Below, piece after piece: positions 12,417 to 63,657 of a stretch of 64,000 bases of DNA. The notes under the pieces are model-generated. The model was not told the origin of the DNA and did no database searches. It worked only from the letters and a program-made list of their open reading frames with translations. Every line of letters starts with the position of its first letter. The stretch's first letter is position 1. This stretch comes from Chloroflexota bacterium (GTDB lineage Bacteria; Chloroflexota; Dehalococcoidia; UBA2247; RBG-13-53-26), in the NCBI GenBank assembly GCA_016875915.1, contig VGOM01000002.1, positions 23,263 through 87,262 on the forward strand, read 5' to 3'. The translations under genes and the position numbers were made by a program.

Positions 12417-12436
12417 CTTCGCTCCCTTTCACCAGT

Positions 12437-12862: not shown

Positions 12863-12895
12863 TTCTTCTCTCCCTAAGCCTCCTCTGGAGTAACT

Positions 12896-17204: not shown

Positions 17205-17275
17205 CCCTGCGGCTGCAGACCATTCCCGAGGCAGGCCAGATTGAGTCTTGACGGCAGAACGGATCAGGAAGAGAG

Positions 17276-18430: not shown

Positions 18431-18454
18431 CGAACGCGCAAGGAGATTCTGACC

Positions 18455-20452: not shown

Positions 20453-20874
20453 ACTTCGAACCCAGGATTGTGGGCTTCCTCTGCAACTGGTGCAGCTACG
20501 CCGGGGCTGATATGGCCGGCACGGCACGGATCTGCTACCCCTCGAACATCCGCGTCATCAGGGTGCCCTGCTCGGCCAGGATCGACCCCCTCCTGGTGGT
20601 CAAGGCCTTTCAACTCGGCGCCGACGGCGTGCTGGTGGCGGGCTGCCACCCCGGCGACTGCCACTACACCGAAGGTAACTACTACTCCCGGCGCCGCTTC
20701 GCGCTGCTCTATCCCTTCCTGGAATACCTCGGCATCGAGAAAGGCCGGCTCCGACTGGAATGGGTGTCAGCCTCCGAAGGGAGGAAGTTCTCACATGTGG
20801 TGTCCTCCTTCACCGAGGGCCTGGTCAGCCTGGGCCCCCGGGAGAAGGTCCCGGCAGAAGGAGCGCTGCCATGA
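20443..20874 (+). CDS. MvhD/FlxD-like [2Fe-2S] protein
   Basis: FLCNWCSYAGADMAG...VAGCHPGDCHY. Overlaps the hdrA stop by 10 nt and the next gene by ATGA. Confidence 0.85.
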   Translation: MAIDFEPRIVGFLCNWCSYAGADMAGTARICYPSNIRVIRVPCSARIDPLLVVKAFQLGADGVLVAGCHPGDCHYTEGNYYSRRRFALLYPFLEYLGIEKGRLRLEWVSASEGRKFSHVVSSFTEGLVSLGPREKVPAEGALP

Positions 20875-23550: not shown

Positions 23551-23658
23551 GCATCGTTGGAGACAGCCCTACTCATCGCCACATCCCCCCTCAGACCAGT
23601 CCGCACCCGATGGCTGCCGGCACGATGGACAGACCGATTTCCGGTGTGAGAATATAGG

Positions 23659-24960
23659 ATGTACGAAGATCCTTCAGATTCCGGAGACAACCGGAGAATG
23701 CTTCGTGCGCATGGCCCTCATCTGGTCCTGGTGCTCCTGGCGACTGGGGCACTGCTCTGGCATTCGCCCGGCTCAGTCGGCCTCCCGGCAGCGGGCGTCT
23801 TCGGATTCGCCGGGCTGACCGTCCTTCTGGCCATGGTCAGCAGCGTCCTCGGTCCTTTCGCCGGAGGCAACGAGGCGGAATGGACCGTGTACCTGGAGAA
23901 GGCCCTCAAGGCAGAGAGGGACAGGCTGATGGCCATGCTCAACACCATGGAGGAAGGGGTGGCCATCATCGGCCCGGACCACCGGATCCGCTTCATGAAT
24001 CCCAGCATGGTCAGGGACTTCGGCCACGGCATTGGCGCGCTGTGCCACCGGCATCTCTACGGCTTCGACGAGCCGTGCAACGAGGTGTGCAAGCTCCCAC
24101 AGGTGATCAGGGGCTCCACGGAGAGGTGGGACTACACCTTCGCCGACGGCCGGACCTACGACATGATCGCCGCACCGTTCGCCGACTCCGACGAGAGTCC
24201 CTGCATGCTGGCCACCTACAGGAACGTCACCCGGCAGAAGCAGGTTGAGCTGGAGCTAATCAAGCTCAACCGCCTCAAGTCCGAGCTTCTGTCCAACGTG
24301 TCACACGAACTCAAGTCACCGCTGACCTCCATCAAGGGGATCATCAGCAGCCTGCTGCAGGAGGACATCAGATGGGACGATGCCACCGGCAAGATGCTGC
24401 TGGCCGGAATAAGCGAGGAATCGGACCGGTTGGCCAGCCTGGTGACCAACCTGCTGAACATGAGCAAGCTCGAGGCGGGGGTGTGGAATCCCGAGAAGGA
24501 GGCCTGCGACATATCGGAGATCATTCGTGAGACCCTGGAACGCCAGAAGTGGGTCCACAAGAGCCACACGTTCGAGGCCAACGTCGCCCCGGACCTGCCG
24601 GAGATCTCTGCGGACTCCAACCAGATCAAGCAGGTCCTGATCAATCTGCTGGAAAATGCCGCGGCCTACTCTGAAGAAGGCACCAGGATCGTAGTGGCGG
24701 CCAGGGCGGACGGCAGAGAGATCGAGGTGTCGGTGTCCGACCAAGGCATCGGCATGCCGGCGGAGGAACTGGAGAAGGCCTTTGAGAAGTTCTACCGCGG
24801 CAGCCAGAAGCGCCGCCGCCCCGGAGGCACCGGACTGGGCCTGGCCATCTGCAAATCCATTGTCATGGCTCACGGTGGGCGGATCTGGGCCGAGAGCCAA
24901 CTTGGCAGAGGAAGCACCTTCCGCTTCACCCTGCCCCCAGGCGAGCAGGCCAAGCACTAG
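23659..24960 (+). CDS. membrane-anchored PAS sensor histidine kinase (paralog of the 15422 kinase; same 4-Cys PAS motif)
   Basis: Two N-terminal TM segments; the PAS core has ~60% identity to the kinase at 15422, including C-x10-C-x3-C...PCML. HisKA and HATPase_c domains. The start codon is uncertain (23659 or 23698). Confidence 0.85.
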   Translation: MYEDPSDSGDNRRMLRAHGPHLVLVLLATGALLWHSPGSVGLPAAGVFGFAGLTVLLAMVSSVLGPFAGGNEAEWTVYLEKALKAERDRLMAMLNTMEEGVAIIGPDHRIRFMNPSMVRDFGHGIGALCHRHLYGFDEPCNEVCKLPQVIRGSTERWDYTFADGRTYDMIAAPFADSDESPCMLATYRNVTRQKQVELELIKLNRLKSELLSNVSHELKSPLTSIKGIISSLLQEDIRWDDATGKMLLAGISEESDRLASLVTNLLNMSKLEAGVWNPEKEACDISEIIRETLERQKWVHKSHTFEANVAPDLPEISADSNQIKQVLINLLENAAAYSEEGTRIVVAARADGREIEVSVSDQGIGMPAEELEKAFEKFYRGSQKRRRPGGTGLGLAICKSIVMAHGGRIWAESQLGRGSTFRFTLPPGEQAKH

Positions 24961-25688: not shown

Positions 25689-26354
25689 TCACGGGATATC
25701 CTCCAGGGTGACCCAGCCCTCCTTCAGCGCCCTGACCACCGCCTCGGTCCGGGAACTGACCTGCAGTTTGTTGAAGATGTGCCCCAGGTGCCCCTGCACC
25801 GTCCTGATGCTCAGACAGAGATCTCTGGCGATATCGGCGTTACTGAGACCGTGGGTGGCCATCCTGAGTATCTCCTTCTCCCGGTCGCTGAGCACCTCCG
25901 CGGACTTGGCCGGCGACGCCTTTGCACCGCCGGCCACGAAGCGATTGAGCACCTTCTTGGCCACCGCCGGATGCAGCACTGACTCGCCGCCGTGCACCGC
26001 ACGCACCGCGTCTATGAACTCGCGGCTGCGTACGCTCTTGAGCAGATACCCGGCAGCCCCGGCCTCCAGCAGACTGAAGACGAACTGATCATCGTCATAG
26101 GCGGACAGTATCAGGATGGTCACCGAAGGGCAGCGGGCCTTGATCTGTCTGGTCGCCTCTATGCCGTCCAGCTTCGGCATCGATATGTCCACGATGGCAA
26201 CATCGGGCCTGGTCTCGTCCGCCAGTTTGACCGCCTCTTCCCCATCAGCAGCCTCACCCACCACCTCCATATCCCCCTCTTGTTCCAGCATCCTCCTGGT
26301 CCCTTCCCTCACCACAGCATGATCATCCGCTATCAGCACACGTATCTTGCCCAC
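25689..26354 (-). CDS. NarL/LuxR-family response regulator (paralog of 37223-37888)
   Basis: Receiver plus LuxR helix-turn-helix (ILRMATHGLSNADIARDL). The ORF track extends it to 26399. The preferred start is the GTG at ~26354, which has a GGAGAGG RBS and an extended -10 TGCTATAAT 26 nt upstream. Confidence 0.85.
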   Translation of the reverse strand: MGKIRVLIADDHAVVREGTRRMLEQEGDMEVVGEAADGEEAVKLADETRPDVAIVDISMPKLDGIEATRQIKARCPSVTILILSAYDDDQFVFSLLEAGAAGYLLKSVRSREFIDAVRAVHGGESVLHPAVAKKVLNRFVAGGAKASPAKSAEVLSDREKEILRMATHGLSNADIARDLCLSIRTVQGHLGHIFNKLQVSSRTEAVVRALKEGWVTLEDIP

Positions 26355-26377
26355 GTTGCCTCTCCTCTGCCTAGGGC

Positions 26378-26388
26378 GGATTATAGCA
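26378..26388 (-). promoter_or_regulatory. extended -10 promoter element TGCTATAAT for the LuxR-type regulator
   Basis: The minus strand reads TGCTATAATC. The identical element sits at the same spacing upstream of the paralogous gene at 37911-37921. Confidence 0.45.
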
Positions 26389-26429
26389 TCGCGCCTCACC
26401 GCCCCCCAGAGGGGAACTACCCGATGCAG

Positions 26430-26691: not shown

Positions 26692-26874
26692 ATGGACTGG
26701 GAGTTCATTGTAGCGCTGGTGGTGGCCATTCCCATCGTTCTTCTGCCCGTGGCGTTCGTGTGGTACCTCAATATCGGCGGCATCTACGCAACCATACGAG
26801 CTGCGCGGCGCAGGAGGGCGGCACGCCGCGAAAGGGAGGCCGCGTCCACTAGACAGGGACAAGGAGGAGCCTGA
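26692..26874 (+). CDS. small single-pass membrane protein (60 aa), paralog B
   Basis: MDWEFIVALVVAIPIVLLPVAFVWYLNIGG..., then an Arg-rich tail. GGAAGGAGGAG RBS. Its stop overlaps the next start (TGATG). Confidence 0.6.
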   Translation: MDWEFIVALVVAIPIVLLPVAFVWYLNIGGIYATIRAARRRRAARREREAASTRQGQGGA

Positions 26875-27293
26875 TGGCGGACAGGAAGATTGAACAGATC
26901 CGGGAGATTGTCAGTGGAATCGCTGAACCCGACGAAATCGCGGAAGTGGACAGAGTCGTCGGTGAAGCCAAAGGCAGAATCCTGATGGAGTCGAAGCGGG
27001 GGTTCTGGGCCGGCAAGACCCCGTGCTGGGAAATGGTCCGTTGCCCGGAGGCCATCAAGAACGACTGCCCGGCATCAAAAGGCCACTCAGTGGCCTGCTG
27101 GGAGATCGCAGGGACCTACTGCAAGCTGCCTTCGGGACACGACACCAGTATCTGTGAGGTATGCCGGGTGTACAAGAGGTGGGGCGATGGAGAGGTCATC
27201 GCCATCAAGCTCGATACCACAGGGACCACAGGCAGCGCAGCGGCTGAGACCCGCACAAAGGCGGCTTCAGCCAAGGCAAAGGGCGGGAAGTAA
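26874..27293 (+). CDS. cysteine-rich protein of unknown function (8 Cys, two CWE(M/I) motifs)
   Basis: Cysteine array: ...CWEMVRCPEAIKNDCPASKGHSVACWEIAGTYCKLPSGHDTSICEVCRVY... Translationally coupled to the upstream small membrane protein, with an A/K-rich C-terminal tail. Confidence 0.55.
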   Translation: MADRKIEQIREIVSGIAEPDEIAEVDRVVGEAKGRILMESKRGFWAGKTPCWEMVRCPEAIKNDCPASKGHSVACWEIAGTYCKLPSGHDTSICEVCRVYKRWGDGEVIAIKLDTTGTTGSAAAETRTKAASAKAKGGK

Positions 27294-27462: not shown

Positions 27463-27975
27463 ATGACCAAGGCCGAACTAGAATCACTGGTGAAGAGAGA
27501 GGCTGGCACAGGGTACGCCCCCCGCATCTTCAGGGACATCCAGAAGGTCATTGAAGACACCGGAGGGCGGTCGGGGGCATTGATCAGAGTCCTGCAGCAA
27601 GCCCAGGGACTGGTGGGGTATCTGCCGCCGCCGGTGCTCATGACCATCTCCAGGGACCTGAACATACCTCTCAGCGAAGTGAACGGCATAGTCAGTTTCT
27701 ACAGCTTCTTCACCACCGTTCCCCGCGGGAAGTATGTCGTTCAGGTGTGCCTGGGTACATGCTGCTACGTCAGAGGCGGGCAGAGGATCCTGGATGTCCT
27801 GAAGAAGGAGTACGGGCTTGAACCCGGCGATACGTCGCCTGACGGACTGCTGTCCGTGGACACCATCCGCTGTCTGGGGGCCTGCGCCCTGGCCCCGGTG
27901 GTTACTCTGGACGGACAGGTGCACAGAAGGGTGAAGGCCACCGGTGTGAAAGAACTAGTCAGCCACTGCAAATAG
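27463..27975 (+). CDS. hoxE: NuoE-like [2Fe-2S] thioredoxin-fold diaphorase subunit (HoxE/HndA-like)
   Basis: CLGTCC...C...C motif of NuoE/24-kDa-subunit type. Start at MTKAELESL, with an AGGAGG RBS. Confidence 0.85.
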   Translation: MTKAELESLVKREAGTGYAPRIFRDIQKVIEDTGGRSGALIRVLQQAQGLVGYLPPPVLMTISRDLNIPLSEVNGIVSFYSFFTTVPRGKYVVQVCLGTCCYVRGGQRILDVLKKEYGLEPGDTSPDGLLSVDTIRCLGACALAPVVTLDGQVHRRVKATGVKELVSHCK

Positions 27976-27985
27976 GGGGTTAGCC

Positions 27986-30900
27986 GTGAAGAGAATTGAC
28001 TCCTTGGAAGCCCTGGACGCCATCAAGAAGAAGGTAAGGCCCCGTCTGGCCGTCAGAGAGGACACCGACCACAGCAAGATCAAGGATGCCGCTCAGGTCG
28101 ATGTGCTCGTCTGCAGAGGCACCGGCTGCACGGCTGCCGGCGCCGACCTGGTCGAAGAGGCTTTCCGCGACCTCATTGCCAAGAAAGGCCTCGAGTCCAA
28201 AGCCAGAGTCGTTGGCGTGACCAAGATCGGCTGCCGCGGTTTCTGTGAGAAGGGCCCCAACGTGACCATCACCCCCGGTGACATCCTCTACACCCTGGTG
28301 AAGCCCGAAGACGTGGAGGAGATCATCGAGACGCACCTCATCCACGGTGAGATCGTGGACAGGCTGGTCTACGTTGACCCCATCAGCCGCAAGGCCAGTC
28401 CGGCGAACCATGACATCGAGTTCTATAAGAAGCAGAAGAGGATCGTTCTGGGCCTCAACGGCCTGATAGACCCATGGAGCATAGAGGACTACATCGCCTT
28501 TGACGGCTACCGCGCCTTTGTCCGCGCGCTGACCCAGATGAACGCCGATCAGGTCCTGGAAGAGGTGAATAAGTCGGGCCTCCGCGGGCGGGGCGGGGCC
28601 GGATTCCCCACGGCGCGCAAATGGACGTTCGTCCGCAATGCCACCGGCGATGAGAAGTTCGTGGTCTGCAACGGAGACGAAGGCGACCCCGGGGCTTTCA
28701 TGAACCGCTCCGTCCTCGAAGGCAACCCCCACGCCGTGGTTGAGGGCATGCTGCTGGGAGCATATGCCATCAAGAATGTCCGCCAGGGATATGCCTACGT
28801 CCGTGCCGAGTACCCGCTGGCCATCGAGACGCTGGGCCACGCCATAAGCCAGGCTCGCCAGTACGGGCTGCTGGGCAAGGACATCCTGGGGACCGGCTTC
28901 GAGTTCGATCTCGACATCTTCCCCGGTGCGGGAGCCTTCGTCTGCGGAGAAGAGACCGCCCTGCTCATATCCATCGAAGGCAAGCGGGGCAATCCCCGCC
29001 AAAGGCCCCCGTTCCCGGCCAACAAGGGTCTCTTCGACAAGCCGACCACCATCAACAATGTGGAGACGTGGTCCATAGTCCCGCAGATCATCCTCAACGG
29101 CGGGGAGTGGTACAAGAGCCTGGGAGTGAAGGGGAACGCGGGAACCAAGACCTTCTGCCTGGTGGGCAAGATCAGTAGCTCCGGAATCGCTGAAGTCCCG
29201 GTCGGCACTCCCTTGGGGAACATAGTCTTCGACATCGGCGGAGGTCCTCCCGGCGACAAGGCCTTCAAGGCCGTCCAGATCGGCGGACCCTCCGGCGGCG
29301 TGATCCCTATCGAGCATATCAACACCTCCGTTGACTATGAATCGGTGACCAGCCTGGGGGCCATCATGGGCTCCGGCGGCCTCATCGTCATGGATGAAGA
29401 CAGCTGCATGGTGGACATGGCCAAGTTCTTCCTCCAGTTCACCAAGGACGAGTCCTGCGGCAAATGCCTCCCGTGCCGCGCCGGCATCCCCAAGATGCTG
29501 GACATCCTGAACAAGATCACCCGGGGCGAAGGCAGCCTGGAAGACCTGGCCGTCCTCCAGGAGTTGGCCGAGATGGTGGGCTCCGCGTCCCTCTGCGGAC
29601 TGGGCCAGACCGCCCCCAACCCCGTGTTGAGCACCATCCGCCACTTCCGTCAGGAGTACGAGGCGCATATCATCGACAAGAGGTGTCCGGCGGCTGTCTG
29701 CGCAGCGCTGTTCAAGGCACCATGCCAGCACACCTGTCCGGTGGGCCTGGATGTCCCGGGCTACGCCGCCTTCATCAAGGAAGGCCGGTTCGCCGATGCC
29801 TACCGACTGATCAAGCAGAGGAATCCCTTCCCCTCGATTTGTGGCCGAGTCTGCCACCACCCCTGCGAGAGCAAGTGCCGGCGGGGGCAGATGGATGAGC
29901 CCGTGGCAATCAGGCACCTGAAGCGGTTCGCCGCTGACTGGGCTATCGAACACGGCTTCGAATATATACCGCCGGTGAAGGAGAGAAGGGCGGAGAAGGT
30001 GGCCATCGTTGGGGCCGGCCCCGCCGGACTGTCCGCGGCTCACGACCTGGCCCTTGACGGCTACCCGGTCACGGTCTTCGAGGCTTTGTCCGTGGCCGGC
30101 GGCATGCTTGCGGTGGGCATACCCGAATACCGGCTGCCCAGGAACGCCATCCAGAGAGAGATCGACGCCATCCGGAGAATGGGCGTTGATATCCAACTGA
30201 ACACCAGCATCGACGATCTGAAGGCCCTGTTCAAGGATGGCTACAAGGCCGTCTTCATGGCCGTGGGTGCCCACAGCGGGGACAAGATGAAGATCGCCGG
30301 CGAGGACATGAAAGGCGTGTACGACGCCGTGGAGTTCCTCCGCGACGCCAACCTGGGCCGCGCCGCCAAGGTAGGGAAGAAGGTGGCCGTGGTCGGCGGG
30401 GGCAATACTGCCACCGACTCCGCCAGAGTGGCCCTGAGGATGGGCGCCGAAGAGGTGCACATGTTCTACAGGCGGGAGAAGAAGGATATGCCCGCCATAG
30501 CCGAGGAGGTGGTGGCCGTCGAGGAAGAGGATATCCACCTTCACCTGCTGACCGCCCCCACCCGGATAGTGGGCCAGGACGGCAGGGTGTCAGGGCTGGA
30601 GCTGATCCAGATGACGCTGGGAGAGTTCGACAAGAGCGGCAGGAGAACGCCGAGCAATGTTGCCGGCTCTGAGTACGTCTTCAAGTGCGACACCATCATC
30701 GAGGCCATCGGGCAGCGGCCAGCCACCGCCTCGTTCAGCGGCAACGGACTCAAGATCGGCCGGGGCGGGACCATATCCGCAGATGCCCGCACCCTGGCCA
30801 CGGATCAGCCGGGCGTGTTTGCCGGTGGAGATGCAGTGACCGGCCCCCAGACGGTGATAGAAGCCATCGCCGCCGGCCAGAGGGCCGCTTCTTCCATCAA

Positions 30901-31141
30901 GCGCTTCCTGCGGGGAAGCGATCTGGCCCCGAGGGTGGATCGCCCCGACGTCGAGGCCTTCGTGCTGCCTGCGCCTGACGAGGTGGAGGACGTCAAAGAG
31001 AAAGCACGGCTGGTCATCGAGGAGGTGACCTCGAAGAAGAGGAAGGGCTCATTCGACGAAGTGGTCCTGGGCTACAGCGCTCCGGAGGCCATGGAAGAGG
31101 CAGCGCGATGCCTCAGGTGCGATGCAGAAGCTGGAGGATAA
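27986..31141 (+). CDS. hoxF: NuoF-like NAD(H)-binding FMN/[4Fe-4S] diaphorase subunit (HoxF) with N-terminal [2Fe-2S] domain, fused to a C-terminal GltD-like FAD/NAD(P)-binding domain
   Basis: GTG start. N-terminal thioredoxin-like [2Fe-2S] (CRGTGCTAAG...CRGFCEKGP). NuoF core (GRGGAGFPTARKW, CGKCLPCR). 2x[4Fe-4S]. Then, from about residue 650, VAIVGAGPAGLSAAHDL...VAVVGGGNTATDSAR, typical of the glutamate synthase small chain. Confidence 0.88.
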   Translation: MKRIDSLEALDAIKKKVRPRLAVREDTDHSKIKDAAQVDVLVCRGTGCTAAGADLVEEAFRDLIAKKGLESKARVVGVTKIGCRGFCEKGPNVTITPGDILYTLVKPEDVEEIIETHLIHGEIVDRLVYVDPISRKASPANHDIEFYKKQKRIVLGLNGLIDPWSIEDYIAFDGYRAFVRALTQMNADQVLEEVNKSGLRGRGGAGFPTARKWTFVRNATGDEKFVVCNGDEGDPGAFMNRSVLEGNPHAVVEGMLLGAYAIKNVRQGYAYVRAEYPLAIETLGHAISQARQYGLLGKDILGTGFEFDLDIFPGAGAFVCGEETALLISIEGKRGNPRQRPPFPANKGLFDKPTTINNVETWSIVPQIILNGGEWYKSLGVKGNAGTKTFCLVGKISSSGIAEVPVGTPLGNIVFDIGGGPPGDKAFKAVQIGGPSGGVIPIEHINTSVDYESVTSLGAIMGSGGLIVMDEDSCMVDMAKFFLQFTKDESCGKCLPCRAGIPKMLDILNKITRGEGSLEDLAVLQELAEMVGSASLCGLGQTAPNPVLSTIRHFRQEYEAHIIDKRCPAAVCAALFKAPCQHTCPVGLDVPGYAAFIKEGRFADAYRLIKQRNPFPSICGRVCHHPCESKCRRGQMDEPVAIRHLKRFAADWAIEHGFEYIPPVKERRAEKVAIVGAGPAGLSAAHDLALDGYPVTVFEALSVAGGMLAVGIPEYRLPRNAIQREIDAIRRMGVDIQLNTSIDDLKALFKDGYKAVFMAVGAHSGDKMKIAGEDMKGVYDAVEFLRDANLGRAAKVGKKVAVVGGGNTATDSARVALRMGAEEVHMFYRREKKDMPAIAEEVVAVEEEDIHLHLLTAPTRIVGQDGRVSGLELIQMTLGEFDKSGRRTPSNVAGSEYVFKCDTIIEAIGQRPATASFSGNGLKIGRGGTISADARTLATDQPGVFAGGDAVTGPQTVIEAIAAGQRAASSIKRFLRGSDLAPRVDRPDVEAFVLPAPDEVEDVKEKARLVIEEVTSKKRKGSFDEVVLGYSAPEAMEEAARCLRCDAEAGG

Positions 31142-31144
31142 GAG

Positions 31145-33124
31145 ATGAAGCAGATAACGCTCACTGTTGACGGCAAGGAAGTCAAGGGCCGCGAGGGTGA
31201 TACTGTCCTCGATGTCTGCCAGGCCAACGGCTTCGATGTCCCCACACTGTGCCATTTCAAGGGTCTTACCAGTGTCGGCGCCTGCCGCATGTGTGTCGTT
31301 GACATTGAGGGTGAGAGAAGGATAAACCCCGCCTGCACCTACCCCGCCAGGGACGGCTTGGTGGTGCAGACCAAGACCGAGACGCTGGAGAGATACCGCC
31401 GCCTGATGCTGGAACTGATGTTCACGGAGAGGAACCACCTCTGCATGTTCTGCGAGCAGAGCGGCGACTGCGAGCTGCAGAAGATGGCCTACCGCTATCA
31501 GATGGATAATGTCCGCTACCCCTACACCTTTCCGTCGCAGCCGCTGGACCCGTCCACGGACGCCATTGCCGTGGACCACAACCGCTGCATCCTCTGCGGC
31601 AGGTGCGTCCGCGCCTGCGCTCAGATTGAAGCCAACCACACCCTGGATTTCTCCAAGCGCGGCTGGAAGACCATGGTGGCGGCCGATCTGGGCCAGTTGC
31701 TGGGCGAATCGTCATGCACACTCTGCGGGGCCTGTATGCAGGTCTGCCCCACCGGAGCAGTATTCTCCAAACTTAGCATCTATAAGGGGAGGACCGCGGA
31801 GTGTCAGAAGACTGATACGGTCTGCCCCATCTGCGGGGTGGGCTGCGAGCTGCGGGTCTTCTCCAAGGACAACAACGTGATACTTATTCAGGCCCCGGAA
31901 CCGGCTCAGCCAAGGGGAGCCCTCTGCAAAGAGGGCCGCTTCGGGCTGCTCCGCAACGGGCATCTGAGGGTCGCCTCACCCCTGATCAGGGACAGGCATG
32001 GCAGGCAGTCGGAGAGCACTCTGGATGAAGCCCTGGAGGCGGCGGCAGAGAAGCTCAAGGCGGCGGGGCGGGGCTCCACTGCCGGGGTTGTCTCGTCCAG
32101 ACTGCCCGGCGAGACCCTCTCCCTCTTCGACAACTTCGTGCGCGATGTGCTGGGCAGCGACTGCATCGATACCTGCGATGGCAGGTCCTTCCGGGTGATT
32201 GCCCAGGGCATCAAGCAGTTCCACGGCAAGAGGAAGGGCCTGGACATCGAATGCGGTGCCGAGGAGATCCTTCAGGCCGACTGCATCCTCCTGGTGGGGG
32301 CTGACCCCCTGAAGACCCACCCGGTCATCGGCGCGCTGATCCGCAGAGCCTTGGACGAGAGGAAGGCCAAGCTGGTGGTGGTCAACGTTGAGAGGGATGT
32401 CTTCCCCCTATGGAGCACCCTCTGGCTGAAGCCCAGGGCGGGCAGCGAAGGAGCGGTGCTCAGCGGCCTGTCCAAGAGCATCATCGACAACGGCCTGGTG
32501 AAGACCAAGAAGACGCCGGCTGAGCTCATTCAGTCCCAGCGCCGCTACTGGACCGAGGAACCGGTCCATTCCACCGGCGTCGATCCGGAGAAGATCGATG
32601 CCGCGGCCAGGATGTACGCCGAGGCTGAGAACGCCGTGATCATCTACGGTGAAGGGTTGCTGGAGAGGAATGACTCCAATCTGGTCACCCTCCTGCTCAA
32701 CCTGGCCGATCTGACCGGGAACCAGGCGGGAAGCCATCTCCGCGTGCTCTCCCTCAAACCGCACTGCAACAGCCGCGGCGCCTGGGATCTGGGCATAGCA
32801 GACAAGGAGATCCCCCGGGGCAAGGTGAACGGGCTTTATCTGCTTCTGGGTGAGGAGCAGGGAAGCGAGAGGCTGCAGAGCTGGCTTCGGGGCATGGATT
32901 TCCTCATTGTCCAGGCCAGCTACCAGTCGCCGGTGACCTCGATGGCCGACATCGTATTGCCATCGCCAACCTGGGCGGAGAGGGAGCCGGGGGAGTTCAT
33001 CAGCATGGACGGTCGTATCTACGAGTCACGACCGGTCGTCAGCCCGGCGGATGGCGTGCTTCAAGACAGGGAGATCCTGGTGAGGCTCTCGAAGAAGCTG
33101 GGACACAGATTGACCCCAAGGTAG
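31145..33124 (+). CDS. hoxU: NuoG/HoxU-like Fe-S subunit with an N-terminal [2Fe-2S] and [4Fe-4S] region and a degenerate molybdopterin-oxidoreductase-like C-terminal domain
   Basis: 2Fe-2S motif (CRMCVVDIEGERRINPAC), 4Fe-4S His/Cys cluster motifs, CILCGRCVRAC and CTLCGACMQVCP. No Mo-ligating Cys/Sec context. Confidence 0.85.
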   Translation: MKQITLTVDGKEVKGREGDTVLDVCQANGFDVPTLCHFKGLTSVGACRMCVVDIEGERRINPACTYPARDGLVVQTKTETLERYRRLMLELMFTERNHLCMFCEQSGDCELQKMAYRYQMDNVRYPYTFPSQPLDPSTDAIAVDHNRCILCGRCVRACAQIEANHTLDFSKRGWKTMVAADLGQLLGESSCTLCGACMQVCPTGAVFSKLSIYKGRTAECQKTDTVCPICGVGCELRVFSKDNNVILIQAPEPAQPRGALCKEGRFGLLRNGHLRVASPLIRDRHGRQSESTLDEALEAAAEKLKAAGRGSTAGVVSSRLPGETLSLFDNFVRDVLGSDCIDTCDGRSFRVIAQGIKQFHGKRKGLDIECGAEEILQADCILLVGADPLKTHPVIGALIRRALDERKAKLVVVNVERDVFPLWSTLWLKPRAGSEGAVLSGLSKSIIDNGLVKTKKTPAELIQSQRRYWTEEPVHSTGVDPEKIDAAARMYAEAENAVIIYGEGLLERNDSNLVTLLLNLADLTGNQAGSHLRVLSLKPHCNSRGAWDLGIADKEIPRGKVNGLYLLLGEEQGSERLQSWLRGMDFLIVQASYQSPVTSMADIVLPSPTWAEREPGEFISMDGRIYESRPVVSPADGVLQDREILVRLSKKLGHRLTPR

Positions 33125-33134
33125 GAGGTATAAC

Positions 33135-33671
33135 GTGGCCAAACCGAAGATCGCTACTGCGTGGCTAGCCGGGTGTGCTGGATGTCATATGTCCTTCCTT
33201 GACATCGATGAGGCGATCATCGAGGTCGCCAAACTGGTGGAGATCACCGCCAGTCCCATCACCGACTTCAAGGAGTTCCCCGCTGTTGACGTCGGCATCG
33301 TCGAAGGCGCCGTCAATACCACGGACAACGTCGAGGTAGTGCACAAGCTGCGGCACGCCTGCAAGATACTCATGGCCTGGGGTGACTGCGCCTGCTTCGG
33401 GGGCATACCTACCATGCGCAATATGTTCGACAAGAACGAACTGCTCCGGCGGGCTTTCGTCGAAACCGAGAGCACCGCGAAGGGGAGGATCCCCTCCTCT
33501 GACGAGCTGCCCCGCCTTCTGGATCAGTGCAAGCCGGTGCACAACGTCGTCAAGGTGGATTGCTTCGTCCCCGGCTGTCCCCCCAGTGCCAAAGCGATTC
33601 ACTACGCCCTGGTGGAGCTCCTCAATGGCAGGATCCCGGTGCTGCCCGCCGAAATGATGAAGTTCGACTGA
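33135..33671 (+). CDS. hoxY: [NiFe]-hydrogenase small subunit, group 3d (HoxY)
   Basis: GTG start after a GGAGG RBS. WLAGCAGCHMSF...WGDCACFGG...VPGCPP; short (178 aa), HoxY-type. Confidence 0.88.
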   Translation: MAKPKIATAWLAGCAGCHMSFLDIDEAIIEVAKLVEITASPITDFKEFPAVDVGIVEGAVNTTDNVEVVHKLRHACKILMAWGDCACFGGIPTMRNMFDKNELLRRAFVETESTAKGRIPSSDELPRLLDQCKPVHNVVKVDCFVPGCPPSAKAIHYALVELLNGRIPVLPAEMMKFD

Positions 33672-33697
33672 ATGTGCAGAGTTGTGGAGGCATTCAA

Positions 33698-35128
33698 ATG
33701 ACCAAGAAGATCGTCATCGAGCCGATTACCCGTATCGAGGGCCACGGGAAGGTGACCATCGAACTGGACAACGACGGGAATGTTGCCGACACCAGGTTCA
33801 ATGTCGTGGAGTTCCGGGGGGTGGAGAAGTTCTGTGAGGGGCGGCTCTTCTGGGAAATGCCACTGATCACTGCACGGGTCTGCGGCATCTGCCCCGTCAG
33901 CCATCATCTGGCCGCCGCCAAGGCCGGCGATGCCATCCTGGGCGTTGAACTGCCCCCGGCGGCCAAGAGACTGCGCGAGCTGCTCCACATGGCCCAGTAC
34001 GTCCAATCCCATTCTCTTCACTTCTTCCACCTGGCCAGCCCCGATCTGCTCCTGGGTATGGACGCCGATCCGGCCAAACGGAACGTCATCGGGCTCATCG
34101 CCGAGAAACCTGAAATCGCAGTCAAAGGGGTGATGCTGCGCAAGTTCGGCCAGGAGCTGATTGAAGCCCTGGGCGGCAAGAAGGTGCATCCCAACGCTGC
34201 CATCCCGGGAGGGATGAACAAGGCCCTCTCCCATGCGGAGCGGGACAGGTTCCTGGGGCAGGCAGACCGGGTCATCGCTGACATCGGCGTTGCCCTGGAC
34301 ATCGCCAAGGACTACTTCGCCCACCACGGGCGCGAAGCGGCTACCTTCGCCGTGTTCCCGTCCTGCTATATGGGACTGGTGGGCCAGAGCGGGAATCTCG
34401 AGCTGTACGACGGCACTCTGAGGGTCAGAGACAGCAAGGGGTTCATCCTCGAAGATAACGTGGATCCCAGCGACTACCTGTCCATCATCGAGGAAACGGT
34501 GGAGGACTGGTCCTACCTCAAGTTCCCCTACTACAAGAAGTGGGGCTACCCCGCCGGCACCTACCGCGTCGGCCCGCTGGGCAGGCTGAACGTGGCGGAC
34601 AGGATTGCCACGCCTCTGGCCGACAAGGAGTTCCGCGCCTTCAAGAAGCTCGGAAACGACGGGATAGTCGAGGGTTCGCTGTACTACCACTATGCCCGGC
34701 TCATCGAGGCCCTGTACGCCGCCGAGAGGCTGAAGGCACTGCTGGAGGATGAACTCACCTGTTCAACTGAGATAAACGTCAACTCCTCGACCTTCAACGA
34801 AGAGGGTATCGGGGTCATCGAGGCCCCCAGGGGCACGCTGATCCATCACTACTGGGTGGACCGCAACGGGACAGTGAGGAAGGCCAACCTCATCGTGGCC
34901 ACCGGGCACAACAACGGGGCCATCAACCGCGCCGTTCACGAGGTGGCCAAGGAGTACATCAAGGGGACCAAGATCGCCGAGGGAATGCTGAACCGGGTGG
35001 AGGCAGCCATTCGCTGCTACGACCCCTGTCTCTCCTGTTCAACGCACGCCCTGGGGCAGATGCCCCTGAGAATCGAAGTGGTCTCCCCCTCCGGGGAGGT
35101 CTTGGACTGCTCTCAGACCCGGCCGTAG
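33698..35128 (+). CDS. hoxH: [NiFe]-hydrogenase large subunit, group 3d (HoxH)
   Basis: Start at [17 protein letters not shown] with a [16 protein letters not shown] and C-terminal [12 protein letters not shown], plus a C-terminal extension for endopeptidase processing. The ORF track entry starts further upstream. Confidence 0.92.
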
Positions 35129-35149: not shown

Positions 35150-35183
35150 AGAACATCTCCTGATGTGGGACAGGAGATGTTCT
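35150..35183. terminator. perfect 13-bp inverted repeat between convergent hoxH and the histidine kinase (putative bidirectional terminator)
   Basis: AGAACATCTCCTG-atgtggga-CAGGAGATGTTCT, lying between the hoxH stop (35128) and the kinase stop (35185). No strong U-run. Confidence 0.35.
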
Positions 35184-35184: not shown

Positions 35185-37191
35185 TTATGCGGCGATCTCC
35201 ACCACCACCGATGTACCTTTGCCCGGCTCGGAGTGAAAGGTCACATTGCCGCCGAGCAGGCCCGCCCTCTCCTGCATGCCGGTCAACCCGAGCTTGCCGT
35301 CCCTGGTCAGATCACCGACGGAACTCGGCACGGCGAAGCCCTTGCCATTGTCCTTGATGATCATCACCACCTTGGATCCCTGGAAATCCACGCTGACTTC
35401 TGCTTCTGTTGCCTCGGAATGCCGCCAGACATTCCTCAGGGACTCCTGAGCGATCCGAAACAGAGTCAGCTCGACATCGGGAGGTAGTCGCCGGCTGGCG
35501 CCGCCCACTTTGACCTTGACATCTATGCCTGAGTACCGGGACACATCGCTGGCCAGCCACTCCAGCCCGGCCAGCAGGCCGAGCCGGTCCAGCGTCGAAG
35601 GTCTCAGGTCCTGAGTCAGACGCCTCACCCCGTCCATGATGCCGGTGGTCTGCTGCCGCAGGCTCTCCAGGAGAGCCCTCTTCTCCTCCGGCATGCTCCT
35701 GCCCGAAGAGGCCGCATCCTCGAGCTGCCGCGAAAGGACCACCAGCGCCTGTATGGTGTCATCGTGAAGCTCGCGGGCAATGCGCTTTCTCTCCTCTTCC
35801 TGGGCCTTGGTCACCTGGCTCAGGTAGCGGCGCAGGTTCTCTTTCAGACGGATCTCCTCGGTCACATCCCTGGCGATGTTGTGGAAGCCCACGGGCTTTC
35901 CATCCTCCGCCACCATGCTGGTGGTCACCATCAGTATCGCCTCGGAACCGTCCCTGCGCCCCATGCGCAGCTCATAGGGCTGTTCCAGGGGCTCGCCGTC
36001 CATCAACTTGGACTTGACCTCCCTGGCACGGCCTAGGCCCTCCTCCGACAGGAAACCCCTGACGTTCATGGTGAGTAGTTCTGCCATGCTATATCCAGTG
36101 ACCTTCTCGGAGGCCCTGTTGGCAACGATGTAGTTCCCTTCCAGGTCGTGCACCCAGATGGCATCGTAGGCGTTCTCGAAGAGCCCCCGGTAGTTCCTCT
36201 CCGAGACAGCCAGCCTCTGGGTCGCCAGACGCTCCATCTCATACAGTCGAGCGTTGTCTGTGGCCACCCCGATCTGGTTGGCGATGGCGGTGAGCAATTC
36301 CACGTCGTCCTTCAGGAAGCGCCTGACACTCCGCGTAGCCACGTAGAGGGTCCCAGCCACCCTGCCCTTGGCCTTCATAGGCACCACCAACTGGGACCGA
36401 ATCCCCTCCTGCTTCACTGCCTGCCTGGCCACATCGTAGTGCTGGAAGGCATCCTCCACCAGCTTCATCTCGCCCGACTCAGCGACATGATTCTGGAAGC
36501 CGCGGCGCACCTTCACCCGGCCCACGGCCAGCACGAATTCCTGGGACGCACCGTGGTGGGCGGAGACCACCAGCTCGCCCGCCTCCTCATCGACAAGGGC
36601 GATCATGGCCACGTCTACCTTGGTCACATCGACCACATTCCGCACCGCCCTGTTCAACACATCATCCAGCTGCAGCGACTCAGACAGTATGGCCGACATC
36701 CGGTTCAGAGCCCCCAGTTTCCTCTCATTCTCCTTGATCACCTGGAGCTGCAGTTGCAGCCTCTTCTCCGCCATCTCCAGCTGGGTCCGGCGGTTGTGCT
36801 CCTCTCTGAGGGACTTGAAGGATAGGGCCACAACCATGCCGATGCTGAATACGGCAATGCTCTCCAGAATCGCGTCCGTGGGGTGGTCCGAGATGGCGAT
36901 GGCCCGCGGCAGCATGCAGGCCAGGGCCACGACGGAGGTGGCCACCACCCCCCGCTGGCCGAAAAGGAATCCCGCCCAGACCATCGGGGCCAGGTAGAGT
37001 ATTCTCTCGAACGAGTGTCTGTCCAGCTTGATGTTGTCAAGGACGCTGTTCAGCCACTGGGGATAGCCCGCCGTGTCCCGGTAGTGCAGGACGGTGATCA
37101 GTGCCAGCAGGACGACTGTCAGCCAGAAGCCAGGGCGCTTCAACAACCCCGACAGACGTCTGGTCAACGGCATTCTCTCGTGTTCAGCCAC
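35185..37191 (-). CDS. NarL-family sensor histidine kinase (TM + GAF + PAS + HisKA_3 + HATPase)
   Basis: N-terminal TM helices, GAF and PAS regions, the HisKA_3 H-box (ARELHDDTIQAL) and HATPase_c (GKGTSV). Confidence 0.88.
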   Translation of the reverse strand: MAEHERMPLTRRLSGLLKRPGFWLTVVLLALITVLHYRDTAGYPQWLNSVLDNIKLDRHSFERILYLAPMVWAGFLFGQRGVVATSVVALACMLPRAIAISDHPTDAILESIAVFSIGMVVALSFKSLREEHNRRTQLEMAEKRLQLQLQVIKENERKLGALNRMSAILSESLQLDDVLNRAVRNVVDVTKVDVAMIALVDEEAGELVVSAHHGASQEFVLAVGRVKVRRGFQNHVAESGEMKLVEDAFQHYDVARQAVKQEGIRSQLVVPMKAKGRVAGTLYVATRSVRRFLKDDVELLTAIANQIGVATDNARLYEMERLATQRLAVSERNYRGLFENAYDAIWVHDLEGNYIVANRASEKVTGYSMAELLTMNVRGFLSEEGLGRAREVKSKLMDGEPLEQPYELRMGRRDGSEAILMVTTSMVAEDGKPVGFHNIARDVTEEIRLKENLRRYLSQVTKAQEEERKRIARELHDDTIQALVVLSRQLEDAASSGRSMPEEKRALLESLRQQTTGIMDGVRRLTQDLRPSTLDRLGLLAGLEWLASDVSRYSGIDVKVKVGGASRRLPPDVELTLFRIAQESLRNVWRHSEATEAEVSVDFQGSKVVMIIKDNGKGFAVPSSVGDLTRDGKLGLTGMQERAGLLGGNVTFHSEPGKGTSVVVEIAA

Positions 37192-37222: not shown

Positions 37223-37888
37223 TCAGGGCACGTCTTCCAGAGTGACCCACTCTTCCTTCAAGGCCCGGACCACCGCCTCAGTGCGGGAGCCAACCTGCAG
37301 CTTGTTGAATATGTGCCCCAGATGCCCCTGCACAGTCCGTATGCTGAGGCACAACTCCTCGGCGATGTCGGCATTGCTCAGGCCGCGGGCGGCCAGCTTG
37401 AGGATCTCCTTCTCTCGATCGCTCAGTATCTCGGCCGACCTAGCGGCCACCGTCTTCTTGTTGCCGGCCATGAAGCGGTTGAGCACCTTCTTGGCCACGG
37501 CAGGGTGCAGCACAGACTCGCCGGAATAGACCGCCCTGACCGCATCCACCACCTCGCGGCTGCGCACGCTCTTGATCAGATAGCCCGCCGCGCCGGCCTC
37601 CAGCAGAGCGAAGACAAACTGATCATCATCATAGGCAGAGAGGATCAGCACCGTCACTGAAGGGCAGCGCCTCTTGATCTCCTTGGTGGCCTCTATGCCA
37701 TCGAGCTTCGGCATCGAGATGTCCATTATGGCTACGTCCGGCCTCAACTCATCGGCCAGGCATACCGCCTCTTCACCATCGCCGGCCTCGCCCACCACCT
37801 CGAGGTCCTTCTCGCGCTCGAACATCCTCCTCATCCCCTCCCTCACCATCGCATGATCATCAGCTATCAGCACTCGGATATTGGTCAT
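37223..37888 (-). CDS. NarL/LuxR-family response regulator (cognate of the upstream kinase; paralog of 25689-26354)
   Basis: About 75% aa identity to the other LuxR regulator. Start set at MTNIRVLIADDH, which has a GGGGG RBS and the TGCTATAAT element 26 nt upstream. The ORF track extends it to 37948. Confidence 0.88.
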   Translation of the reverse strand: MTNIRVLIADDHAMVREGMRRMFEREKDLEVVGEAGDGEEAVCLADELRPDVAIMDISMPKLDGIEATKEIKRRCPSVTVLILSAYDDDQFVFALLEAGAAGYLIKSVRSREVVDAVRAVYSGESVLHPAVAKKVLNRFMAGNKKTVAARSAEILSDREKEILKLAARGLSNADIAEELCLSIRTVQGHLGHIFNKLQVGSRTEAVVRALKEEWVTLEDVP

Positions 37889-37910
37889 GCCACCCCCTCG
37901 TAGCTGACGT

Positions 37911-37921
37911 AGATTATAGCA
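37911..37921 (-). promoter_or_regulatory. extended -10 promoter element TGCTATAAT for the LuxR-type regulator (copy 2)
   Basis: Same sequence and spacing as at 26378-26388. Confidence 0.45.
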
Positions 37922-38040
37922 CAGGCCGAACGTGATCTCGCGTTGCATTGGACCAGGCGCACCGGCACCGCACGGGTTTCTTTGACACTCGCGTTCGGCA
38001 CAGCGTACAATCTACACAGGAGACTCGCTCAGGAGGCCAG

Positions 38041-39216
38041 ATGGATTTCAGCTTCACCGATGAGGAAAAGAAGTTCCGCTTAGAGGTCCTCGACTTCATC
38101 AAGAGGGAGCTCCCTGACAACTGGACCGGGACCGGCCTTCTTCAGGAGGCCAAGGACGGTGCGGAGTGGGAATTCGCCCGGGGCATGCTGCGCAAGGTGG
38201 GAGAGAAGGGCTGGCATTCTCTGTCCTGGCCCCGGGAGCATGGCGGAGAGGACTCCGTAACCAAGCAGTTCATCTTGAGCGACGAGATGTACTACCACGA
38301 GCTTCCCGGCGTGGACATCCAGGGCGCTCTGATGTGCGCTCCCACCCTGATACAGTATGGCAGCGAGGCCCAGAGGAAGAACTTCCTGCCCGAGATCGCC
38401 CGCGGCGAGCAGGTCTGGTGTCAGGGCTTCAGTGAACCGGGGGCCGGCTCCGACCTGGCCGCGGTGTCAACCAAGGCTGTGGACAAGGGGGACCATTTCG
38501 TCGTTGATGGGCAGAAGGTCTGGAGCACCGGGGCCATGCGCGCCGATTGGACCTTCATCCTGGCCAGGACCGACCCCGAGGCCGCCAAGCACAAGGGGAT
38601 AAGCTTCCTCCTCGTTGATCTGAAGACGCCCGGGGTTGAGGTGCGCTTCCTGCCGAACATCGTCGGCACCTACTGCGAGATCTTCTTCGACAACGTCAAG
38701 GTGCCCAAGGAGAACCTAATAGGCAAGCAGAACGACGGCTGGCGGGTCACCGGAGCCATCCTTGGCTACGAGAGATCGGGCATTCACCGCATTGCCGCCG
38801 CCCGGCGGAATCTCACCCGTCTGATCGAGTTCGCCAAGGAAACGAAGCGCAACGGCAGGCCGCTCTTTGCCAATCCGGTTGTCCGCAGCCGCCTGGCTCA
38901 ACTCTACGTCGAAGCTGAGGTGGCCAGGATCCTGGCCCACCGCATCGTCTGGATGCAGGGTGCCGGCAAAGCCGTGGACCACGAAGCCTCGATGTCCAGG
39001 GTGTTCGGCGCGGAGTTCCAGCAGCGCGTGGCCCAGGCCGGACTGCAGATCACCGGGGCTTTCGGGCAACTCGACGAGGGCTGCAAGTGGGCCCCTCTCT
39101 CGGGGTTCTTCCAGCGTCAGTATTTCTACGCCGCCGCGGCCACCGTGGGCGCTGGCACCGCCGAGATACAGAGGAACATCATCGCTCTCAGAGGACTGGG
39201 GCTGCCCAGGGGCTAG
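38041..39216 (+). CDS. acyl-CoA dehydrogenase
   Basis: Start at MDFSFTDEEKKF. ACAD N-terminal, middle (CQGFSEPGAGSD) and C-terminal domains, with a catalytic Glu near the C-terminus. Confidence 0.88.
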   Translation: MDFSFTDEEKKFRLEVLDFIKRELPDNWTGTGLLQEAKDGAEWEFARGMLRKVGEKGWHSLSWPREHGGEDSVTKQFILSDEMYYHELPGVDIQGALMCAPTLIQYGSEAQRKNFLPEIARGEQVWCQGFSEPGAGSDLAAVSTKAVDKGDHFVVDGQKVWSTGAMRADWTFILARTDPEAAKHKGISFLLVDLKTPGVEVRFLPNIVGTYCEIFFDNVKVPKENLIGKQNDGWRVTGAILGYERSGIHRIAAARRNLTRLIEFAKETKRNGRPLFANPVVRSRLAQLYVEAEVARILAHRIVWMQGAGKAVDHEASMSRVFGAEFQQRVAQAGLQITGAFGQLDEGCKWAPLSGFFQRQYFYAAAATVGAGTAEIQRNIIALRGLGLPRG

Positions 39217-40421: not shown

Positions 40422-40431
40422 GCAGCACCTC

Positions 40432-63649: not shown

Positions 63650-63657
63650 CGAACCCT

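Follow-up and report, generated by a model that had tools for sequence, protein, structure and literature searches.

Organization of the operon

We analyzed a stretch of 64,000 nucleotides from a Chloroflexota bacterium (GenBank assembly GCA_016875915.1, contig VGOM01000002.1, positions 23,263–87,262), hereafter the window, which carries a five-gene [NiFe] hydrogenase operon at positions 27463–35128. A first-pass annotation had named these genes hoxE-hoxF-hoxU-hoxY-hoxH and had pointed to a HoxF of 1051 aa and a HoxU of 659 aa; the five open reading frames (ORFs) and both sizes were confirmed. All five lie on the + strand and are closely packed, with intergenic gaps of 10, 3, 10, and 26 nt. 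The first gene, hydC (“hoxE”; 27463–27975), encodes a NuoE-like BfuC protein of 170 aa that matches the Pfam family 2Fe-2S_thioredx (E 2e-43). It is followed by hydB::gltD (“hoxF”; 27986–31141), which starts with GTG and in which Pfam and PDB sequence matches reveal a BfuB core joined to a GltD-type module for nicotinamide adenine dinucleotide phosphate (NADP(H)) and flavin adenine dinucleotide (FAD). Next come hydA (“hoxU”; 31145–33124), a BfuA identified by full-length alignment to chain 7T2R_A and by Pfam, and hydS (“hoxY”; 33135–33671), the 178-aa [NiFe] small subunit, which matches Oxidored_q6 and 7T2R_E. The last gene, hydL (“hoxH”; 33698–35128), encodes the 476-aa large subunit, recognized by its match to 7T2R_D and by the ligand motifs RVCGIC and DPCLSCSTH; its ATG start codon is at 33698, corrected from 33695.

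The enzyme very probably belongs to the Bfu family

The PDB comparison took in the four subunits other than HydC, and HydB, HydA, HydS, and HydL each found their best sequence match in 7T2R, the electron-bifurcating NiFe-HydABCSL enzyme of Acetomicrobium mobile (Feng et al., 2022; PMC8880783). HydL scored 611 bits against 7T2R_D, compared to 481 against 5XF9_D of a group 3d Hox enzyme and 414 against MvhA, and HydS scored 205 bits against 7T2R_E compared to 155 against 5XF9_C. HydA aligned end to end with the 692-aa chain 7T2R_A (430 bits), whereas 5XF9 matched its first 209 residues only (140 bits). For HydB, 7T2R_B gave 733 bits and no 5XF9 chain appeared among the 60 best sequence matches; compared with HoxF by Foldseek, its fold gave a root-mean-square deviation of 14.7. 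NADP-coupled sulfhydrogenases of group 3b were considered and rejected, as they scored far below these values, at about 110 bits for HydL and about 56 bits for HydS.

The first-pass annotation had described the locus as a canonical group 3d HoxEFUYH hydrogenase with an extra C-terminal domain on HoxF. The E-F-U-Y-H-like gene order agrees with this description, as do the precomputed Pfam “HoxH” matches on the large subunits of relatives, and NCBIfam ranked HoxE first and HoxU second. However, both equivalog models stayed under their cut-offs (149.9 bits against 224 for HoxE; 263.8 bits against 333 for HoxU, the latter over residues 1–211 only), the four compared subunits are nearer to 7T2R than to 5XF9, the HoxF fold deviates strongly, and HydB possesses an N-terminal [2Fe-2S] domain and a Zn hinge that are absent from H. 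thermoluteolus Hox (PMC8880783). The 659-aa “HoxU” also speaks against it: because this protein aligns end to end with the HydA of 7T2R, it is an ordinary HydA of the HydABCSL family and not the oddity it had been taken for. We therefore consider a canonical Hox enzyme very improbable. The degenerate MopB-like domain reported for this subunit was a fair description: Pfam detected Fer2_4, NADH-G_4Fe-4S_3, two Fer4 motifs, Molybdop_Fe4S4, and Molybdopterin (residues 275–651), but no Molydop_binding domain. HydA is predicted to consist of an N-terminal [2Fe-2S]/[4Fe-4S] chain and a cofactor-less MopB/NuoG-like C-terminal domain.

We also compared the locus with the domain definition of the Bfu family (Schut et al., 2022; PMC9304861). 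By Pfam, HydB carries the Nuo51 domain that binds flavin mononucleotide (FMN; IPR011538) and the NuoF 4Fe-4S domain (IPR019575), HydC is a NuoE-like BfuC (IPR002023), and HydA has the 2Fe-2S and 4Fe-4S domains of BfuA. What HydB lacks is IPR017896, the C-terminal ferredoxin-type domain that holds clusters B3 and B4 on BfuB. The definition of BfuB also includes an SLBB domain, IPR019554 (PMC9304861). The corresponding PF10531 had no match at E ≤ 0.01 on the window HydB, yet the GGPSG motif of this region is invariant, and some close homologs as well as a fusion protein from Pelotomaculum do match. As for the NiFe-HydABCSL type, we found all of its features: subunits C, B, A, S, and L, a long HydA without H-cluster, and group 3-type S and L subunits with all NiFe ligands. 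HydC has cysteines at 96, 100/101, 137, and 141, so that the ligands of cluster C1 are retained; it would carry the mobile C1 [2Fe-2S] cluster, and hydC is kept in all relatives. Taken together, there is little doubt that the product of the locus is a five-subunit, cytoplasmic [NiFe] hydrogenase from the electron-bifurcating Bfu (HydABC-type) family, the Chloroflexota counterpart of A. mobile NiFe-HydABCSL.

A GltD module stands where HydB normally reduces ferredoxin

Along HydB::GltD, Pfam recognized in order 2Fe-2S_thioredx (residues 33–116), Complex1_51K (194–366, E 9e-41), NADH_4Fe-4S (477–561, E 3e-33), Fer4_20 (569–657, E 1e-27), and Pyr_redox_2 (671–964, E 5e-34). All coordinates of its parts are on the + strand. 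Conservation was followed in 117 full-length homologs, in which no cluster-ligand cysteine varies in the FMN core, hinge, or GltD Fe-S subdomain or at the extreme C-terminus.

The N-terminal thioredoxin-like domain (28082–28333; Pfam residues 33–116) has the four cysteines C43, C48, C83, and C87 of a [2Fe-2S] cluster called B5 in the 2025 nomenclature. C83 and C87 are invariant, while C43 and C48 (codons at 28112–28114 and 28127–28129) are kept in 61 of the 117 homologs; the window protein retains both. In 55 homologs, which form a subgroup of about 1029 aa, His/Gly replace them, and cluster B5 has probably been lost or swapped for another metal in about half of the clade. In Nfn-ABC, the site in this domain holds zinc and is dispensable for bifurcation (PMC11829005).

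The FMN/NAD(H) core with the B1 [4Fe-4S] cluster (C491, C494, C497, C537) extends over 28463–29671, as delimited by Pfam, alignments, and motifs. Bifurcating and non-bifurcating beta subunits of NADH-dependent enzymes can be told apart by three signatures (Losey et al., 2020; PMC7311640), namely A/E and M in PGxFM (T. maritima 232/234), F in GAGAF (367), and GGPSG (427–431). At these places HydB has A237/M239, F318, and GGPSG at 433–437, all of the bifurcating type in 117/117 homologs, in which PGAxM, GAGAF, and GGPSG are invariant as motifs.

The core is followed by the Zn hinge (29666–29701; H561...C567-P-A-A-V-C572), which corresponds to the B2 site, assigned as Zn in later structures (PMC11829005). 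Its residues H561, C567, and C572 are invariant, and no later segment aligns with canonical HydB. Alignments to 7T2R_B and to an [FeFe] HydB (7Q4V_B) both end at residue 578 (residue 542 of the 597 in the 7T2R chain), right after the hinge motif DKRCPAAVC. In a canonical HydB, a ferredoxin-type 2x[4Fe-4S] domain of about 55 residues with clusters B3 and B4 comes next; it is the exit of the low-potential branch C1 → B3 → B4 → ferredoxin in A. mobile, Stn, and Nfn-ABC (PMC8880783, PMC11829005). Pfam detected no Fer4 domain of this kind on HydB, only the Fer4_20 of the GltD module, whose first cluster cysteine (C580) lies eight residues past hinge C572. Because the alignment stops at the hinge, the B3/B4 domain is missing, and C580 follows so closely, the GltD module replaces the C-terminal ferredoxin-reducing domain of HydB rather than being added onto a complete subunit. 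The first-pass annotation had seen a complete glutamate synthase small chain-like domain appended after the NuoF core. Pfam indeed identified a complete FAD/NADP-type domain, but it is not merely appended.

The module begins with a GltD-type Fe-S subdomain (29717–29956), which Pfam and conservation predict to bind two [4Fe-4S] clusters through C580, C584, C623, C627, C631, and K646. The FAD- and NADP(H)-binding Rossmann domains (29987–30916), defined by Pyr_redox_2 and by alignments to NfnA, StnC, and NfnB, contain intact and invariant dinucleotide motifs (GAGPAGL for FAD, GGGNTATDSAR...YRRE for NADPH). A defect in these motifs had been named as one way in which the earlier description could fail. 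At the extreme C-terminus, a tail (31028–31123) ending in RCLRCD (C1042, C1045) aligns with residues 8–43 of 4YLF_B and with the stretch of 9BOV_A that ends at residue 567. All 117 homologs have RCLRCD unchanged, and it is retained in fusions of 34–48% identity. The tail corresponds to the N-terminal segment of NfnB and would complete the GltD [4Fe-4S] site, in a circular permutation as in StnC/NfnA.

The best PDB matches of the module are C. saccharolyticus NfnA (9BOV_A, 403 bits), T. sibiricus NfnA (9N5U_A, 360 bits), and S. ovata StnC (8OH5_C, 355 bits), and NfnA/StnC modules scored above, or level with, the NfnB of NfnSL. One cluster-ligand position is a Glu in NfnB and Lys170 in StnC (PMC10482914); the equivalent residue 646 is K in 99, R in 13, H in 5, and E in none of the 117 homologs. 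As this residue is never Glu and the CxxC is C-terminal, the module departs from the NfnSL type, and no gene for a PyrK-like (NfnS) partner was found in the operon or among the scanned neighbours. With its two predicted [4Fe-4S] clusters, FAD/NADPH motifs, CxxC after the Rossmann domains, and Lys ligand, we assign the module to the Stn/NfnABC type. In StnC/NfnA, the FAD does not bifurcate but terminates a wire as a plain NADPH site (PMC10482914, PMC11829005). As a discriminator between bifurcating and non-bifurcating sites, the Arg in contact with FAD N5 was dropped, since it occurs in both NfnB and StnC (PMC10482914).

An AlphaFold2 model of HydB::GltD had a predicted local distance difference test (pLDDT) score of 79.7 and a predicted template modelling score of 0.74. 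By Foldseek, its N-terminal half resembles bifurcating BfuB chains (TMt 0.82–0.92) and its C-terminal half the GltD modules of NfnA/StnC; no solved chain spanning both halves was found.

The fusion is recurrent and its partner is exchangeable

A homolog search among 5.8 billion proteins yielded full-length matches (62–96% identity) in more than 120 protein clusters of 1027–1055 aa. The nearest homologs are a Logan protein (96% identity), a protein of Chloroflexi RBG_13_53_26 (88%), and locus L005 of our related loci (72–92%), and the homolog clusters with a named source are labelled as metagenome-assembled genomes of Chloroflexi or Dehalococcoidia. In distant fusions (34–48% identity), the junction and the motifs are conserved, and a junction-specific pattern occurred in at least 600 stretches of GTDB species genomes from many phyla. 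This recurrence answers the question whether a sequencing or assembly frameshift might have joined hydB to a separate gltD. The same junction is seen in more than 120 independent full-length clusters and in the GTDB stretches, and its residues are invariant; an artefact is thus refuted and its probability practically nil.

We searched 84 related loci by tblastn with the window subunits. Sixteen of them contain a complete NiFe operon with the fusion, and two further loci lie on truncated contigs. All 16 are Chloroflexota: 15 belong to Dehalococcoidia or Dehalococcoidales and one to Chloroflexia. In about 15 other loci, BfuC and BfuB::GltD adjoin an [FeFe] HydA, an arrangement confirmed by Pfam in Pelotomaculum terephthalicicum JT. 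The hosts of this version include Bacillota (among them the isolate P. terephthalicicum JT, with adjacent rnf genes), Firestonebacteria, Halanaerobiales, Armatimonadota, and Omnitrophota. In 11 loci from Acetothermia, Aminicenantes, Zixibacteria, and Ignavibacteriales (L025, L037, L041, L048, L051, L056, L059–L061, L064, and L067), BfuC and BfuB::GltD adjoin a GltB-like protein. There, the two genes are followed by a short BfuA-like Fe-S protein and the GltB-like protein (Glu_synthase domain), and L025 also has a glutamate dehydrogenase. This set could represent a Bfu-linked glutamate synthase-like complex.

The swap of third modules mirrors the reuse of canonical BfuBC cores. In a neighbour-joining tree of BfuB cores (51 sequences, no bootstrap), the NiFe-, [FeFe]-, and GltB-linked fusions group with different unfused BfuB, which hints that the HydB::GltD fusion may have arisen more than once and may not be monophyletic.

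Possible route of the electrons

In the mechanism that we propose, H2 would be oxidised at the NiFe site and its electrons would pass through the clusters of HydS and HydA to B1/FMN in HydB. The B1-FMN-C1 site would split them: the high-potential pair would reduce NAD+ at the FMN, and the low-potential electrons would travel from C1 through the two GltD clusters to FAD and on to NADP+, which would take the place of ferredoxin. The net reaction, 2 H2 + NAD+ + NADP+ ↔ NADH + NADPH + 2 H+, would be fully reversible and ferredoxin-independent, and during H2 evolution the oxidation of NADH (about −280 mV) would be pulled by NADPH (about −380 mV). We put NADP(H) in the place of ferredoxin because the replacement falls exactly at B3/B4 with almost no linker, because the module is of the NADPH-port type, and because C1 and a bifurcating-type core are still present. 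Our preferred reading, with a probability of roughly 45%, is a hydrogenase that links H2 to both NAD(H) and NADP(H) independently of ferredoxin, with GltD as the end of the low-potential branch.

We also calculated the H2 pressures at equilibrium, using the potentials in Table 1 of PMC9304861. The NADH + NADPH pair gives about 145 Pa; NADH alone gives about 3 Pa, and NADH + ferredoxin about 15 kPa. A pressure near 145 Pa is a plausible niche for fermenters or syntrophs without a large supply of reduced ferredoxin.

Several points weigh against NADP(H) as the low-potential acceptor. In Stn/NfnABC, a like module feeds the mid-potential BfuA chain and not the low-potential branch. Driving force would be wasted if electrons at about −500 mV went to NADP+, whose potential is about −380 mV. 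By analogy with NfnSL, in which the distal cluster of the GltD fold is the ferredoxin site, use of ferredoxin would be possible. It is only through its very short link to the Zn hinge that we infer where GltD sits in the complex, and the AlphaFold2 model falls below a pLDDT of 50 at residues 566–587, 621–640, and 1043–1051, in the metal-binding loops and at the junction, so that it says little on the geometry there. The preference of the FAD site for NADP(H) over NAD(H) is predicted from motif homology. Finally, the N-terminal domain helps to bind ferredoxin in Nfn-ABC, and the loss of its [2Fe-2S] ligands in about half of the clade is compatible with a ferredoxin-free enzyme but is no proof.

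The same facts allow a different enzyme, in which bifurcation goes to a ferredoxin docked on the distal GltD [4Fe-4S] cluster while FAD/NADP(H) is an extra port, so that a hydrogenase with a built-in Nfn/Stn-like transhydrogenase links H2, NAD(H), NADP(H), and ferredoxin. The GltD fold does give electrons to ferredoxin from its distal cluster in NfnSL (PMC10482914, PMC6405883), HydC and the signatures of the bifurcating type have been kept, the Pelotomaculum [FeFe] version adjoins the rnf genes of a ferredoxin-based system, and the window holds Hdr-like genes of a type that typically uses ferredoxin. However, the missing B3/B4 domain is one leg of the ferredoxin-binding “tripod” of Nfn-ABC (PMC11829005), and another leg, the N-terminal cluster domain, is the one that has lost its ligands in half of the clade. 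The module itself is of the Stn type (Lys ligand, permuted), with no known ferredoxin binding (PMC10482914). We regard such a four-substrate enzyme as possible but doubtful.

The earlier note had proposed an enzyme handling NADH and NADPH, possibly with energetic coupling, and this idea fits the evidence. Its “dual-specific” option corresponds to a non-bifurcating hydrogenase in which FMN/NAD(H) and FAD/NADP(H) are independent, uncoupled ports on one wire to the NiFe site. This is the simplest reading of two nucleotide sites, and loss of the C-terminal clusters also marks the ferredoxin-independent, non-bifurcating [FeFe] HydAB(C) enzymes (PMC7311640). Nevertheless, we hold it to be rather unlikely: all three beta-subunit signatures are invariant and of the bifurcating type, HydC/C1 and the Zn hinge are retained, and an uncoupled wire between the NADPH and NAD+ sites would presumably run as a futile transhydrogenase and abolish the disequilibrium between NADPH and NADH.

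Maturation

The HydL protein has a 26-residue C-terminal extension that requires cleavage, and the first-pass annotation had reported that no hoxW protease gene follows the operon. We confirmed this for the whole window. No HycI/HoxW-type protease or hyp gene was found by Pfam in 60 of the 63 window ORFs of at least 90 aa (the ORFs at 3129–3437, 23409–23690, and 63474–63815 were outside the scan), and no protease was found anywhere in the 64 kb by a six-frame motif scan or by tblastn with the protease of a relative. Likewise, none is encoded within 10 kb of the operon in four relatives with precomputed gene tables. Genes of the HycI family (PF01750) do lie directly 3′ of hydL in two Dehalococcoidales, L013 (13845–14306, E 1e-20) and L007 (15451–15861, E 2e-15). 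The clade uses a dedicated endopeptidase whose genomic position is variable, and absence of an adjacent protease is no defining feature. Since the extension of HydL implies cleavage, a HycI/HoxW-type protease must be encoded elsewhere in the genome, and maturation also needs Hyp proteins encoded beyond the window.

Genomic context

Directly 5′ of hydC, a small Cys/Trp-rich ORF of 139 aa (26874–27293, +) was characterized by its translation, NCBIfam, and tblastn. It contains the motifs CWEMVRCP…CP…CWEIAGTYC…CEVC and is weakly two-CW-domain-like (19.6 bits against the NCBIfam two_CW_domain model, under the cut-off of 35). By tblastn, nine Chloroflexota loci keep it 5′ of hydC. This conserved gene may have an accessory or regulatory role, encoding a redox/metal sensor or an accessory subunit.

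Downstream of hydL, reading the sequence directly confirmed the 13-bp hairpin that had been noted before the convergent kinase gene. It is a perfect inverted repeat with an 8-nt loop (35150–35183, no strand assigned), with arms AGAACATCTCCTG at 35150–35162 and CAGGAGATGTTCT at 35171–35183, and it is located between the two convergent stop codons. It is probably a bidirectional terminator, and a simple terminator scan did not call it because it has no T-run. A promoter and terminator scan of the operon gave no promoter-like site, and terminator-like sites did not exceed the shuffled expectation.

The convergent gene, confirmed by Pfam, encodes a GAF-PAS-HisKA_3 histidine kinase (35185–37191, −), and next to it lies the gene of a LuxR-type response regulator (37223–37948, −; Pfam). 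A homolog of the kinase adjoins the operon, upstream or downstream, in eight Chloroflexota loci (L001, L005, L007, L008, L011, L013, L014, and L016). The kinase and the regulator probably control expression of the operon. A second LuxR-type regulator lies upstream (25689–26399, −). Past the regulator genes, we found an acyl-CoA dehydrogenase (37948–39216, +) and two family III CoA-transferases (39213–41664, −), which suggest organic or fatty-acid metabolism as a possible source of reducing equivalents. Right after hydL, locus L001 has an extra 210-aa HoxU-like gene with 2Fe-2S and 4Fe-4S motifs (17175–17807) that is absent from the window.

The window also contains a second [NiFe] hydrogenase locus (9964–14686, −). 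Its Mvh/Vhu-like large subunit (9964–11427, 487 aa) scored 373 bits against 7T2R_D and 361 bits against MvhA, and it is accompanied by a VhuG-like small subunit (11451–12416, 321 aa). The same strand encodes, further upstream, a stand-alone GltD/NfnB-like protein of 596 aa with an extra C-terminal 2x[4Fe-4S] (12896–14686), best matched by T. sibiricus NfnA (178 bits). Both hydrogenases of the window are therefore associated with a GltD-type NADPH module. Of the proteins encoded in the Hdr-like cluster mentioned above (17276–22720, +), one is HdrB/C-like (384 aa; two CCG + Fer4), one is HdrA-like (665 aa), and one is a Fer4_22 protein of 491 aa. An ORF of 160 aa without any family match occupies the place where MvhD often sits, and several two-component genes flank the cluster.

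Why the fusion may have been overlooked

We found no description of a fusion of BfuB, HydB, or NuoF with GltD in the full-text literature (subscription-only literature was outside the search). The survey of the Bfu family required four InterPro domains of a BfuB, the ferredoxin-type 4Fe-4S domain among them, and it listed six NiFe members and attributed the function to Synergistetes (PMC9304861). The present clade is probably missing from it because HydB::GltD lacks the 4Fe-4S domain that was required. The sole trace in the literature is a rule of HydDB, by which an [FeFe] hydrogenase falls into group A2 if a GltD domain “but not NuoF” is present on the protein encoded downstream (PMC5037454). 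Under this rule, [FeFe] operons with HydB::GltD would be filed as bifurcating A3 enzymes and the NADPH module would go unnoticed. In current databases, the fused subunit appears as “FAD-dependent oxidoreductase,” “NuoF,” or “hydrogenase,” and the clade is probably overlooked at present.

We tentatively suggest that BfuC + BfuB::GltD may be an unrecognised, widespread Bfu sub-family in which an attached NADP(H) flavin replaces ferredoxin as the low-potential partner, and that the NiFe enzyme of Chloroflexota may be the first hydrogenase in which bifurcation or confurcation runs between two pyridine nucleotides. If this is true, the abundant subsurface Dehalococcoidia, and syntrophs such as Pelotomaculum with its [FeFe] version, could release or consume H2 without relying on a pool of ferredoxin. 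There would be a third thermodynamic class of H2-evolving enzymes, placed by its equilibrium pressure between the NADH-only and the NADH + ferredoxin enzymes, and models of the hydrogen and NADPH economy of Dehalococcoidia, frequent inhabitants of anoxic sediments and aquifers, would change. How Bfu enzymes split electrons at the FMN and gate the low-potential electron is still debated (PMC11829005). A ferredoxin-free model with three small-molecule substrates, two of which can be tracked optically, would be available for this question. Since an [FeFe] counterpart exists in the cultured P. terephthalicicum JT, the idea is experimentally testable.

Comparison with known systems

The closest known enzyme is the NiFe-HydABCSL of A. 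mobile (7T2R/7T30), with which the window operon shares its five-subunit make-up. In both, HydA is long, has no H-cluster, and ends in a NuoG/MopB-like domain; HydB has the N-terminal [2Fe-2S] domain, FMN, B1, and the Zn hinge; and the operon is associated with a histidine kinase. However, HydB of A. mobile keeps its C-terminal 2x[4Fe-4S] (the last 55 residues of 7T2R_B), where the window HydB has a GltD module of 470 residues. In addition, the window operon lacks the hydD/hydP-type genes of A. mobile, and the hosts differ (Chloroflexota and Synergistota).

In the fusion of P. terephthalicicum JT (L036; 1011 aa), the architecture and the junction are identical to those of the window protein, with 58% identity in the core and 47% in GltD, and a HydC gene lies upstream. 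No publication that characterises this operon or discusses its fusion was found. Its catalytic subunit is an [FeFe] HydA of 577 aa, in contrast to the NiFe subunits of the window.

The StnABC complex of S. ovata (8OH5) and the NfnABC complexes of C. saccharolyticus (9BOV) and T. sibiricus (9N5U) have in common with the window a BfuBC-type core and the kind of GltD module (355–403 bits). In these complexes the module is inserted in BfuA (StnC/NfnA), where it handles mid-potential electrons, and BfuB keeps its ferredoxin-reducing domain. In the window the module is on BfuB, and it is a NiFe hydrogenase that provides the mid-potential substrate. The large subunit of NfnSL/NfnAB (T. maritima 4YLF, P. 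furiosus 5JCA) shows the fold and cofactors of the C-terminal half of the window protein (311–371 bits), but its FAD is itself the bifurcation site, it has the Glu ligand and an unpermuted N-terminus, and it needs the PyrK-like NfnS, which is absent from the window locus.

Hox enzymes of group 3d (5XF9; Synechocystis) have related large and small subunits and a NuoE/F/G-like diaphorase, and they are cytoplasmic and bidirectional. Unlike in the window, their HoxU has only about 240 aa and their HoxF has no GltD module. According to a 2026 preprint (10.64898/2026.06.25.734504), cyanobacterial Hox also bifurcates with NAD and ferredoxin and does not use NADPH. A possible functional analogy, the exchange between H2 and pyridine nucleotides without ferredoxin, is offered by the non-bifurcating [FeFe] enzymes of syntrophs, S. 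wolfei Hyd1ABC and S. aciditrophicus HydAB (PMC7311640). In contrast to the window HydB, their beta subunits show signatures of the non-bifurcating type (T/S and K/S/A, Y, no GGPSG), and a second flavin module is missing.

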